From IMG/VR virus record IMGVR_UViG_2695420382_000006: a DNA stretch of 13,986 bases; one strand, given 5' to 3'. Below are positions 4,823-13,986 of this stretch, in pieces. Under the pieces are notes generated by a model, which saw only the letters and a list, made by a program, of their open reading frames with translations, did not search any database and had not been told where the DNA came from. The position numbers and the translations under genes were made by a program. The stretch's first letter is position 1. The number at the start of each line of letters is the position of its first letter. Source of the DNA: a virus. Its lineage: Duplodnaviria > Heunggongvirae > Uroviricota > Caudoviricetes.

Positions 4823-5176
4823 TCAGCGGCGACGGTTAACGGCAGGCGGTACGCCCCGTCCAAGCCAGAGATGACAACTTCCGCCATCATCCGGCGAAAC
4901 CCGATCTACCCAGAAATTTTCCTCACCGATGGTCAGCGTGTCTCCACGCCGCAGCTGCCGCACCTCATCAGTCCGGACAAACAGGGACGGGCTGGAGCCT
5001 TCAACGCGCACGCCCTGTCCGGCATAGCTGATATTTTCAGGGTCATCAAAAACACCACGTATCACCGCACCTGACTGCTCACCGGATGTCATGGTGGCTG
5101 ACGTTCCCATGTACCCGCGTATCGTTTCATCGGCGCGGGCAATGGCAGCATCGAACAGGTTATCGAAATCAGCCAC
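4823..5176 (-). CDS. FII: Head-tail joining protein gpFII
   Basis: 117-aa ORF MADFDNLFDAAIARADETIRGYMG...; position and length as lambda FII. Confidence 0.9.
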   Translation of the reverse strand: MADFDNLFDAAIARADETIRGYMGTSATMTSGEQSGAVIRGVFDDPENISYAGQGVRVEGSSPSLFVRTDEVRQLRRGDTLTIGEENFWVDRVSPDDGGSCHLWLGRGVPPAVNRRR

Positions 5177-5187
5177 AGCGCCTCCCG

Positions 5188-5586
5188 TTATTGCATTCTG
5201 GCCAGGCCGCGCTCTGTCATTTCGGCTGCCACACCGGCAGAGACACGAAACGCCGTTCCCGGCAGCACAAATGCCACAGGTTTATCCCGCGTGGCGTGAA
5301 GTGCATCAGTATGCAGCGTCACCAGTGCCACGACCGTGACCAGTTCAGCCGTATCCTGAATCACGGTATCCGGCTGCGCTGATACCACCTCATTTTCATG
5401 CCCGGTCAGCACATTTTCCCGGCTGAGAGGGGTGTCCTGACCGGCAGTTTCATCCGTGTCATCAAGCTCTTCTTCCAGCTCTGCCACACGAAGCGCCAGT
5501 TCTTCTTTCGTTCCCGTCAAACTGACATCGCGGTTCAATTGCTCACCCAGCTCCTGAAGACGGGCAATCAGTTCATCTTTCGTCAT
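5188..5586 (-). CDS. FI: DNA-packaging accessory protein gpFI
   Basis: 132 aa from MTKDELIARLQELGEQLNRDVSLTG; the listed ORF 5188-5625 has a 13-codon upstream extension. SD GGAGGAG lies just upstream of the ATG at 5586. Confidence 0.85.
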   Translation of the reverse strand: MTKDELIARLQELGEQLNRDVSLTGTKEELALRVAELEEELDDTDETAGQDTPLSRENVLTGHENEVVSAQPDTVIQDTAELVTVVALVTLHTDALHATRDKPVAFVLPGTAFRVSAGVAAEMTERGLARMQ

Positions 5587-5607
5587 GAACTCCTCCACAG
5601 AGAGAAA

Positions 5608-5625
5608 ATGGCCCCGAAGGGCCAT
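5608..5625 (-). terminator. Stable hairpin AUGGCCC-UUCG-GGGCCAU followed by a U-rich tract in the E-FI intergenic space; terminator-like, attenuator or mRNA stability element
   Basis: Plus strand 5608-5625 is atggccccgaagggccat, a perfect 7-bp stem with a 4-nt loop. On the minus-strand transcript it is followed by UUUUCUCUCUG and then the FI Shine-Dalgarno. Confidence 0.4.
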
Positions 5626-5627
5626 GA

Positions 5628-6653
5628 TTACGCCAGTTGAACGGACACGAACTCATCAGGATCAGCCAGCAGCATCAGCGGTGCTGACTGAATCATGGTG
5701 AACTCACGCGCCGGATCGCCGGTGGTCACCCAGTTTTTCGGGTAACGGGCAGAGGCGTTAATGCCTTCGCGCTGTGCGTCCGCATCCTGAATGCAGCCAT
5801 AGGTGCGCAGACCGCGAGCCTGAGTGTTCCCCAGCACCATCGTGTTGTCCGGCAGGAAGTTCTTTTTGACGCCGTTTTCCACGTACTGTCCGGAATACAC
5901 GACGATGGCCACATCGCCATACATTCCCTTATAGGACACCGCTTTGCCCAGGTCTTTTACCGCTGTCTCCAGCTCGGAATGAGAGCCGCGACGGGTATCC
6001 AGCTTCTCCTTGACGGCTTTGAAGGAACGGAACAGCGCCCAGCCTTTCGGGTCAAACACGATGATATTCACCACACCGCTGGCGTTCAGCGCGTAGGCTT
6101 CGATATCGTCGGTCGGGTCATACGTGGACTTGTCACGCTTGCTCCACTCCGTGACGCCGGACTGTGTGATGTTGTTCGCCGCACTGCGGCCCATATCCAC
6201 CTCAACCGGATCGAAGGCTTCACCGGTCATGGTGTATTTGCCCTTGAGCACGGCAGAAACTGCCTGCATCTCTTCGACCTGAGCAATGGCCAGCTCTTCG
6301 TCACGCATGTTCTGCATGATGATGCGACGGCGGCGGTAAGCCGGGTCCGCCAGATTCTGCGGATCTTCATCCGGCAGGCGACGCAGGGTCATCTGCGGAT
6401 TCACCTCATGCTTGGGTTTGACATATCCCGGCGTAAATTCAGAGGTGGAGCCGCCACGGGAACGGATAACCTCACCGGAAACAATCGGCGAAACGTACAG
6501 CGCCATGTTTACCAGTCCCGGAATTTGTGAGAGATAGACTTTCTCCGTAGTGAAGGGATAGCTCTCACGGAAAAAGAGACGCAGAAACAGCGGATCAAAC
6601 TTAAATTTCTGCTCATTTGCCGCCAGCAGCTGGGCGGTTGTGTACATCGACAT
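5628..6653 (-). CDS. E: Major capsid protein gpE
   Basis: 341 aa from MSMYTTAQLLAANEQKFKFDPLFLRLFF...; the listed ORF 5628-6680 has a 9-codon in-frame upstream extension. Confidence 0.92.
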   Translation of the reverse strand: MSMYTTAQLLAANEQKFKFDPLFLRLFFRESYPFTTEKVYLSQIPGLVNMALYVSPIVSGEVIRSRGGSTSEFTPGYVKPKHEVNPQMTLRRLPDEDPQNLADPAYRRRRIIMQNMRDEELAIAQVEEMQAVSAVLKGKYTMTGEAFDPVEVDMGRSAANNITQSGVTEWSKRDKSTYDPTDDIEAYALNASGVVNIIVFDPKGWALFRSFKAVKEKLDTRRGSHSELETAVKDLGKAVSYKGMYGDVAIVVYSGQYVENGVKKNFLPDNTMVLGNTQARGLRTYGCIQDADAQREGINASARYPKNWVTTGDPAREFTMIQSAPLMLLADPDEFVSVQLA

Positions 6654-7050: not shown

Positions 7051-7773
7051 TTACACTGGTGTGTTCAGCAAATCGTTAACGGCATCAGATGCCGGGTTAC
7101 CTGCAGCCAGCGGTGCCGGTGCCCCCTGCATCAGACGATCCAGCGCAGTGTCACTGCGCGTCTGTGCACTCTGTGGTGCTGCGGCCAGAATACGGCGGGG
7201 NNNNNNNNNNNNNNNNNNNNNNNNNNNNNNNNNNNNNNNNNNNNNNNNNNNNNNNNNNNNNGCAGTGTCACTGCGCGTCTGTGCACTCTGTGGTGCTGCG
7301 GCCAGAATACGGCGGGCCGTTTCCACGGTCATACCGGGGGTTTCGGCCAGCACGCGTGCCTGTTCTTCGCGTCCGTGAGCCTCCTCACAGTTGAGGATCC
7401 CCATAATGCGACTGTTTTCTGCCGCAACCGCTGCGGTGATCTGCGCGTTCACGTCCGGCTGCGCCGCGCTGGCGTTCTCGCCCTCCGTCGCTTGCACCAC
7501 GCCAGTAACGTCAGCCTGCGAAGCAGTGGCTGAAACAGTTGTTGATTGAGTCTCTTTGGTCATTCGCCCTCCTGAGAGACGGGATTTACGTGCATCCAGT
7601 GCATCACGCATGACGGTGATCGCATCGGTACTGTTAACAAGTTCATCAGCCAGTCCGGCATCAATGGCCTCCTGACCGCTGTACACTGCAGCCTCGGTAT
7701 CCAGCACAGCCTGCACGGACAGGCCGGTATATGCCGACACCTTCTGTGCAAACATCCGGCGGGTTGCATCCAT
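7051..7773 (-). CDS. nu3: Capsid scaffolding protein Nu3 (in-frame internal start within C); reading frame interrupted by a scaffold gap and duplicated flank
   Basis: Internal Met at MDATRRMFAQKVSAYTGLS... is residue 136 of the 7051-8178 ORF, which places it at 7773. Without the 117-nt gap-plus-duplication the product would be 201 aa as in lambda Nu3. Ends ...ASDAVNDLLNTPV. Confidence 0.6.
   Translation of the reverse strand: MDATRRMFAQKVSAYTGLSVQAVLDTEAAVYSGQEAIDAGLADELVNSTDAITVMRDALDARKSRLSGGRMTKETQSTTVSATASQADVTGVVQATEGENASAAQPDVNAQITAAVAAENSRIMGILNCEEAHGREEQARVLAETPGMTVETARRILAAAPQSAQTRSDTXXXXXXXXXXXXXXXXXXXXXPRRILAAAPQSAQTRSDTALDRLMQGAPAPLAAGNPASDAVNDLLNTPV
7145..7317. repeat. Direct duplication of ~55 bp (7145-7199 and 7262-7316) flanking an N-run; unmerged overlapping contig ends
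   Basis: The same sequence gcagtgtcactgcgcgtctgtgcactctgtggtgctgcggccagaatacggcggg occurs immediately before and after the N-run; the translated protein repeats RRILAAAPQSAQTRSDT on both sides. Confidence 0.85.
7201..7261. other. Assembly or scaffold gap (61 N)
   Basis: Uninterrupted run of n characters in the supplied sequence. Confidence 0.98.
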
Positions 7774-8448
7774 CCGGGACTGCAATGTTTCCCGGACATC
7801 ATCCGGTAGATGGCTGTAGGGGTTGCCATCCACCTTATGGCTGCCGCTGTAAATCAGCGTGATTTCCACGCCCTGTTTCTCCAGTGCAGCGCCGTAATTA
7901 CTGTGAGCCATCATGACGCCGATGGAGCCTGTCCGGGCGGTCTGCGTGACCAGACGCCGGGAGGCGGCACTGGCAAGCAGCTGACCTGCGCTGCAGTTCA
8001 TGTCATTGGCCAGCGCCCATACCGGCTTTATGTCACGCACACGGGCGATGATGTCAGCGCAGTCAAATGCTCCCGCCACCATTCCGCCCGGTGTGTCCAT
8101 ATCGAGCAGAATGCCGTCCACCATCGGGTCGCTGGCAGCCTGTTGCAGACGGGCGATAATGCCGTTGTAACCGGTCATCCCCGAGTACGGCTGACCAGCG
8201 TGCCGGACACCGGCAGCACGGCGATGCCGTTCATTACCTGATAACTGCGGGCCTGTCGTGGTCCGTCATCATCACCGGATAACGCCAGCGCCGCGGGTGC
8301 CTCTCCGGCAGTCAGGCTGTCGCCGGATACTGCATCCGTCAGGCAGCTGATCCCAAGCTGGCCTGCAAGCGCACAAAAGAAAACCCGCGCATAGGCGGGT
8401 TCAAGCATCAGCGGCTCATTAAAAGCCATGCTGGCAATATGCGGGAGA

Positions 8449-12149
<3,701 letters not shown>

Positions 12150-12175
<26 letters not shown>

Positions 12176-12695
12176 TCAGCAACCCCGGTATCAGTTCATC
12201 CAGCGCGGCTGCTTTGTTCATGGCTTTGATGATATCCCGTTTCAGGAAATCAACATGTCGGTTTTCCAGTTCCGGAAAACGCCGCTGCACCGACAGGGGG
12301 ATCCCGTCGAGAATACTGGCAATTTCACCTGCGATCCGCGACAGCACGAAAGTACAGAATGCGGTTTCCACCACTTCAGCGGAGTCTCTGGCATTTTTCA
12401 GCTCCTGTGCGTCGGCCTGCGCACGCGTAAGTCGATGGCGTTCGTACTCAATAGTCCCTGGCTGGAGATCTGTCTCGCTGGCCTGCCGCAGTTCTTCAAC
12501 TTCCCGGCGCAGCTTTTCGTTCTCAATTTCAGCATCCCTTTCGGCATACCATCTTATAACGGCGGCAGAGTCATAAAGCACCTCATTACCCTTGCCACCG
12601 CCTCGCAGAACGGGCATTCCCTGTTCCTGCCAGTTCTGAATGGTACGGATACTCGCACCGAAAATGTCAGCCAGCTGCTTTTTGTTGACTTCCAT
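12150..12695 (-). CDS. nu1: Terminase small subunit gpNu1 (cosB-binding)
   Basis: 181-aa ORF MEVNKKQLADIFGASIRTIQNWQEQGMPVLRGGGKGNEVLYDSAAVIRWYAERDAEIENEKLRREVEELRQ...; lies directly downstream of cosB. Confidence 0.92.
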
Positions 12696-13785: not shown

Positions 13786-13986
13786 ATCATAACGTCCGGT
13801 TTCTTCCGTGCCAGAACCGGACTCGCTGGCATGATGAAATATGTGTACCCGGTAACCCCGGTGTGCATCGTTTTTGATTATTCCCGCACACTCGCGCAGA
13901 AGGAGTTCCCCGTCGGGCTACGGTCTCTGTTAATACGGGAATACGGCGACGATTGGATTTGCCCCTATATTTCCAGACATCTGTTA

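Follow-up and report, generated by a model that had tools for sequence, protein, structure and literature searches.

The stretch of DNA analysed here (13,986 bp, referred to below as the window) is the whole of contig CXCV01000106.1 of assembly GCA_001252355.1, a draft genome of Shigella sonnei, in reverse orientation; the two are 100% identical, the N run included (locus L007). The minus strand of the window carries a lambda-like late operon of head and tail genes, as judged from the list of open reading frames (ORFs) and from the gene lists of the sister contigs. The genes Nu1, A, W and B are given in Table 1, and after C/Nu3 there follow D, E, FI, FII, Z, U, V, G/T and the first 748 codons of H. 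Pfam Phage_portal_2 matches B (in the identical gene of the sister contigs), and the 3' end of B overlaps the start of C by 20 nt, an overlap that is also present in the lambda annotation. In the sister contigs, Nu1, A, W, B, D, E, FI, FII, Z, U, V, G, T, H, M and L have lambda-like lengths. A second broken gene was considered for the tail gene H, which is not called in L007, but it was rejected, the frame being open for 748 codons up to the end of the contig. The programmed -1 frameshift heptamer of the tail-chaperone genes G/GT, GGGAAAG, is found at 2679-2673 (-), just before the stop of G, as in lambda.

Table 1. Positions in the window of gene C, its neighbours and the features discussed in the text.
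Feature	Position	Strand	Basis or content
Nu1	12150-12695	-	ORF list
A	10250-12175	-	ORF list
W	10047-10253	-	ORF list
Portal gene B, 533 aa, intact	8449-10050	-	ORF list
C fragment 1, 97 aa	8175-8468	-	Sequence, ORF list; no Pfam domain
Deletion junction, single retained CAGCCG	8188-8193	-	Alignments with lambda and relatives
Stop/start overlap ATGA	8175-8178	-	Sequence; frameshift product
C fragment 2, gpC residues 104-439	7051-8178	-	Peptidase_S49, Ser166 codon, Nu3-identical C-terminal part
Nested scaffold gene Nu3, in-frame start at gpC Met239	7051-7773	-	Transfer by alignment, and translation
Scaffolding artefact	7145-7316		55-mer 7145-7199, stray base 7200, 61 N 7201-7261, the same 55-mer again 7262-7316

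Gene C is present in two pieces. The frame of fragment 1 starts at GTG 8468-8466, with GGAGGAG ahead of it, and ends with ...GTLVSRTRG at the stop TGA 8177-8175; it comprises residues 1-93 of gpC, followed by RTRG from the wrong frame. Fragment 2 lies in the -1 frame, begins at ATG 8178-8176 with MTGYNGIIARLQQ... and runs to ...NTPV at the normal C/Nu3 stop at 7051. In the ATGA where the two pieces meet, the TGA belongs to fragment 1 and the ATG, which corresponds to Met104 of gpC, to fragment 2; the gene callers applied to the sister contigs likewise let a 336-aa gene begin 4 nt inside the 97-aa gene. This is the true length of fragment 2, which reads as 375 codons in the window owing to the gap artefact treated below. 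Nu3 is untouched by the lesion (the lambda annotation puts nu3 at 5132-5737, within C). Taken together, the translated pieces match gpC 1-96 and 104-439. A single continuous C frame of ~439 codons is not found in the window, where a TGA follows codon 97 and the remainder stands in the -1 frame, and on its sequence the split C is judged to be a pseudogene of a lambda-type C, not a working member.

The initial annotation had described the frame from GTG 8468 as running into TGA at 8175-8177, with the rest of C in another frame from 8178 and QPYSGM readable in that downstream frame. These coordinates are right according to both the sequence and the ORF translations, and ...AGQPYSG is indeed read in the -1 frame ahead of ATG 8178. 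The residues named as missing, TRALQP, need to be corrected, because lambda gpC reads V92 S93 R94 T95 R96 A97 L98 Q99 P100 Y101 S102 G103 M104 and thus has only ALQP between VSRTR and YSGM. The terminal RTRG of fragment 1 is the out-of-frame reading of (CC)G TAC TCG GGG ATG A as CGT ACT CGG GGA TGA. After the deletion (8175-8190), CGT ACT CGG matches gpC 94-96 (R-T-R) by coincidence, and it is for this reason that the break seems to come later in the protein than it does in the DNA.

The loss in C of about 19 bp that had been proposed is exactly 19 bp by nucleotide alignment: when positions 8100-8300 are aligned with lambda C by MAFFT, there is one gap of this length and near-identity elsewhere. 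Lambda reads GGT CAGCCG GACGCGGGCGCTG CAGCCG TACTCGG, and the window reads GGT CAGCCG TACTCGG. What is lost is therefore one copy of the 6-bp direct repeat CAGCCG together with the 13-bp spacer. The same CAGCCG-GACGCGGGCGCTG-CAGCCG arrangement is present in two E. coli prophages and in L020, and the sequence GACGCGGGCGCTGCAGCCG marks a C in which the 19 bp are present.

Such endpoints are rare among the deletions that lambda C could undergo. Of the 939 distinct 19-bp deletions possible in lambda C, the observed one is the only one with a 6-bp microhomology, and for lengths of 5-50 bp a microhomology of at least 6 bp is found in 29 of the 43,128 possible deletions (0.07%). The repeat structure is what points to the mechanism, and the repeat-bounded loss of 19 bp would be the product of slipped-strand mispairing or of another microhomology-mediated deletion. 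Assistance by a hairpin was considered and rejected, the DNA fold of the lambda segment being no stabler than that of its shuffles (z = +1.06).

When the region 7900-8500 (601 bp) is used as a query, the matched span is 620 bp in all 25 phage matches listed and in 39 of the 40 E. coli matches listed. The one exception, in E. coli 99_0288 (NZ_CP074769.1; match H32), has a span of 608 bp and carries a different, in-frame deletion of 12 bp in C. This deletion (L010, ~590-610) lies directly upstream of the 19-bp site and removes roughly GTLV of strand 1, and the gene that bears it is annotated as an intact S49 peptidase. This short G+C-rich stretch of C may be prone to small deletions.

The initial annotation had left it open whether the prophage is genuinely defective or the indel is an error of the draft assembly, and it had taken the scaffold gap nearby in the same gene as a ground for suspicion. 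The gap does not bear this out. An identical 55-mer stands on both sides of it, and it is the result of a scaffolder joining two de Bruijn-graph contigs with an overlap of k = 55. Five sister assemblies (L003, L004, L006, L008 and L009) read continuously across the position, and the true sequence there is continuous, with one copy of the 55-mer; in the window, C fragment 2 and Nu3 are each 39 codons too long on account of the gap. A common cause for the gap and the deletion was also considered, but sister assemblies without the gap still carry the deletion. The gap is therefore an unrelated contig-overlap artefact of 55 bp.

A separate irregularity of assembly is seen in L006 (15047-15812; GCA_001253895.1, a contig of 28,960 bp), where gene L is cut at a single N, leaving 190 aa vs 232, and a second Z-U pair follows. 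This truncation and the second Z-U pair are probably a scaffolding join of two lambdoid prophages, and not a real rearrangement.

The distribution of the junction decides between mutation and artefact. At least 24 contigs, taken from further S. sonnei assemblies and from a Logan run, encode exactly the same 97-aa product, and all of them have the junction (41 blocks are indexed for this product in the assembly collection, and 24 contigs were read). These contigs include members of GCA_900487965.1, GCA_001259615.1, GCA_001253895.1 and GCA_001261215.1, and Logan SRR19126783. Over up to ~14 kb they show 0-3 substitutions relative to the window, one of them with an extra 3-bp indel, and their ends differ. 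The few substitutions and the differing contig ends indicate separate isolates of one clone, assembled separately and by different pipelines. The exact 38-mer of the junction also occurs in IMG/VR UViG_2693429733_000004, which matches the window at 100% identity for 11.8 kb and lacks the N gap. Both fragments of C are already deposited in public databases under the name 'minor capsid protein C [Shigella sonnei]'; the contigs that carry them number 26 and 34. In one of the sister contigs (L005, 11659-14217), a 3-bp indel lies in the tape-measure gene H, giving 852 aa vs 853, and there are runs of N upstream of Nu1.

The intact allele is also found in S. sonnei, the source of the intact-allele proteins P0021 and P0024. 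In the S. sonnei contigs L012 and L013, the 19 bp are present and there are otherwise 0 mismatches over 1.2-1.4 kb; in a third, L011, the 19 bp are present with 5 mismatches in 5.8 kb. The prophage of IMG/VR UViG_2667527914_000011 (L020) is also the same; it differs by 10 substitutions in 13.7 kb and has the 19 bp as the sole indel. These undeleted alleles have a continuous C frame that includes the 19 bp, in contrast to the window, and represent the ancestral state. The presence of the intact allele in other S. sonnei and in the near-identical L020 indicates that the deletion is recent, clonal and derived.

Outside this lineage the junction is not encountered. It was not found in 93 phage records, nor in 5,426 complete E. 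coli genomes, in which 4,336 places matched; the full-length E. coli matches listed come in two pieces that span the extra 19 bp, and none of them is a perfect match in a single piece. Functional homologues of C that share the junction, which the initial annotation had named as an observation that would count against its reading, are accordingly seen neither in the phage records nor in the complete E. coli genomes. Scans for the exact junction gave no match in species-representative genomes and none in JGI metagenome contigs. GTDB places Shigella within E. coli, so that the collection of species representatives probably contains no S. sonnei genome and its null result is uninformative.

The possibility that the 19 bp were lost in sequencing or assembly, with an intact C in the real chromosome, draws some support from the nature of the contig, which comes from a fragmented, scaffolded draft with a scaffolding artefact 1 kb off, and from the G+C richness of the missing segment (16 of its 19 bases). 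It has to be set against the fact that several assemblies and pipelines, including the unrelated Logan run and some without the nearby gap, give the junction, on at least 24 contigs in all, and against the endpoints themselves, which fall exactly in a 6-bp direct repeat and thus bear a biological signature. Moreover, S. sonnei drafts with 100% identical flanks contain the 19 bp, and the segment can therefore be both sequenced and assembled. The same recovery of the 19 bp makes a systematic error common to these assemblies, which are possibly all from short reads, very unlikely. An artefact is hence regarded as highly improbable. Of the two options left by the initial annotation, the genuine mutation stands, upheld by the numerous contigs and by the intact S. 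sonnei alleles, and the assembly indel falls. The 19-bp deletion is a real, inherited mutation, and its repeat structure, heritability and derived state are matters of direct observation.

The consequences for the protein follow from where the break lies in the fold. gpC has reportedly been described as a protease (by Medina et al. in 2010). Pfam Peptidase_S49 (PF01343) matches fragment 2 with E = 5.9e-44, covering gpC 150-297. An alignment to Bacillus subtilis SppA (PDB 3RST; E = 4e-22) covers gpC 81-298, beginning with IAVLPVSGTLV (strand 1), and places Ser166 (AGC 7992-7990) at the nucleophile motif of SppA. Since this alignment starts at gpC 81, the break parts strand 1 from the rest of the fold. 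Of the S49 fold, fragment 1 has beta-strand 1 (~81-92) alone, preceded by the N-terminal 80 residues; fragment 2 holds the remaining fold, Ser166 and the scaffold-like tail common with Nu3, without beta-strand 1. Within the ClpP/SppA fold, strand 1 belongs to the core.

Full-length gpC would thus not be made by normal translation, and the protease function is expected to be lost. C is essential in lambda, both by CRISPRi and in the literature (PMC10695390), and it acts with B and Nu3 in the initiation and maturation of the prohead (PMC3224144). Because C is essential, the prophage is most likely non-viable, and infectious heads would most probably be formed only if the protease came from another prophage. 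Such complementation of the C defect could be provided by a second lambdoid prophage resident in this genome.

It may be asked whether the split gene still yields a protease, either by reinitiation at the ATGA or by a low-level -1 slip on CGG GGA UGA. Reinitiation would give a two-piece enzyme or an active form without residues 1-103, and the slip would give gpC without residues 97-102 (ALQPYS). Several features are in keeping with such residual function. The stop and the start overlap as ATGA, and fragment 2 retains the full Pfam S49 match, Ser166 and the Nu3-like tail. If the Gly-tRNA slipped by -1 from GGA onto GGG at the stop, ...SRTRG would be fused to MTGYNG..., and the product would lack only the loop between strand 1 and helix 1. 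In addition, the other morphogenesis genes are all intact, and the in-frame 12-bp deletion of 99_0288, annotated as intact, suggests that the region may tolerate a change of length. However, no canonical slippery heptamer (X XXY YYZ) is present from the junction to the stop, and ATG 8178 has no well-spaced Shine-Dalgarno sequence, a GGGG merely 1 nt upstream being all that precedes it. The core position of strand 1 in the fold also weighs against activity. The split occurs only in a single clonal lineage and was seen neither in the phage records nor in thousands of prophage copies, and the event is too recent for conservation to be informative. A programmed frameshift or a deliberately split gene was likewise rejected, there being no slippery heptamer and no conservation beyond near-identical S. 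sonnei contigs. Residual protease from the split gene is therefore quite unlikely, and it is less likely still that the protease survives (as a two-piece S49 enzyme, or as gpC without the loop ALQPYS) in a prophage that is viable. If it did, strand 1 and the N-terminal 100 residues of gpC could be supplied in trans, or the loop would be dispensable.

Two further features of this prophage lie outside gene C. The canonical lambda cosN is not found in the window; at the corresponding place, 12884-12873 (-), the sequence is GGGCGGAAGGCG vs the canonical GGGCGGCGACCT, a difference at 5 of the last 6 bases. There is hardly any change in the flanks, with one substitution ~25 nt downstream. The canonical cosN is kept in close relatives (the phages 2H10 and PhiR63_1, and an E. 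coli prophage), and another 13 IMG/VR contigs have the variant; with 91 bp across cosN as the query, two complete E. coli genomes give near-identical matches (98.9%). The variant could be an alternative cos of natural origin, or it could be a second defect in packaging. Furthermore, a fragment of an IS3-family transposase (rve_3) is found at L004 1-131, ~110 bp past window position 13986, where it adjoins genes for DUF1398 and DUF3950. The contig evidently ends at a copy of the IS, and the upstream late region of the prophage may be interrupted there. The fragment fits a prophage already decaying in an IS-rich genome.

These features bear on the question of whether the deletion was selected, the host gaining from the disarming of an inducible prophage while keeping the rest of it. 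In favour of selection, C is the sole broken gene seen in ~16 kb of late genes, and isolates collected over a span of years retain the lesion. A single clonal event, however, cannot separate selection from drift or hitch-hiking, and undeleted S. sonnei isolates exist. The IS3-family element, ~1.3 kb upstream of Nu1 in the sister contigs, and the non-canonical cosN imply that the prophage may already have been defective. Selection for the deletion is accordingly considered distinctly improbable.

The reading preferred here, to which a probability of about 0.9 is assigned, is that a 19-bp deletion between short repeats split C in one S. sonnei clone, with loss of the protease and neutral decay of the prophage. 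In the ancestor of this clone, C would have lost 19 bp between the copies of CAGCCG, by slippage or by another microhomology route. By the resulting shift of frame, translation from the GTG would stop after 97 residues, with 336 codons left in the -1 frame behind the ATGA, and any product of fragment 2 would need reinitiation. Nu3 and all the neighbouring morphogenesis genes would stay intact. With the loss of C, the S49-family serine protease that matures the prohead, no infectious heads should be formed without complementation. S. sonnei is a clonal pathogen with a degrading genome, and the outcome would be neutral decay of a prophage in such a host.

For annotation, the split C should be recorded as one disrupted gene and not as two genes for 'minor capsid protein C', and the N gap may be removed as a scaffolding artefact. 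The prophage of the window should not be scored as intact or inducible by prophage predictors. The 19-bp deletion can be used as a simple clonal or lineage marker within S. sonnei.

In comparison with known systems, the gene is an ordinary lambda-type C and the lesion a textbook short-repeat deletion; there is no departure from known kinds, and no new biological question arises. Relative to lambda C/Nu3, the window has ~95-97% nucleotide identity outside the gap, and the order W-B-C/Nu3-D-E, the B/C overlap and the GTG start are common to both. The Peptidase_S49 domain, the Ser166 motif and the internal start of Nu3 are also present in the window. By its homology over the whole length, its S49 domain with the serine, its place between B and D and its nested Nu3, the C of the window belongs to the lambda type. 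The difference is that the 439-codon C of lambda is unbroken, whereas that of the window is divided into pieces of 97 aa and 336 aa. SppA (PDB 3RST, 4KWB and 3BEZ) is of the same fold family, and the serine nucleophile is conserved, but SppA is a cellular membrane-associated peptidase and gpC bears a scaffold-like C-terminal domain.

As to the mutation, spontaneous deletions between short direct repeats, attributed to slipped-strand mispairing, are catalogued in the lacI gene of E. coli. The deletion in C is like these in having a perfect short repeat (6 bp), in keeping one copy and in the closeness of the repeats (13 bp apart). Nothing sets the C lesion apart from them, and the help of a hairpin is not evident. 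As to the prophage, the cryptic lambdoid prophages of E. coli and Shigella likewise combine a point lesion in an essential gene with a nearby IS. The prophage of the window differs in that it keeps most of its late region, which suggests that its decay is recent.
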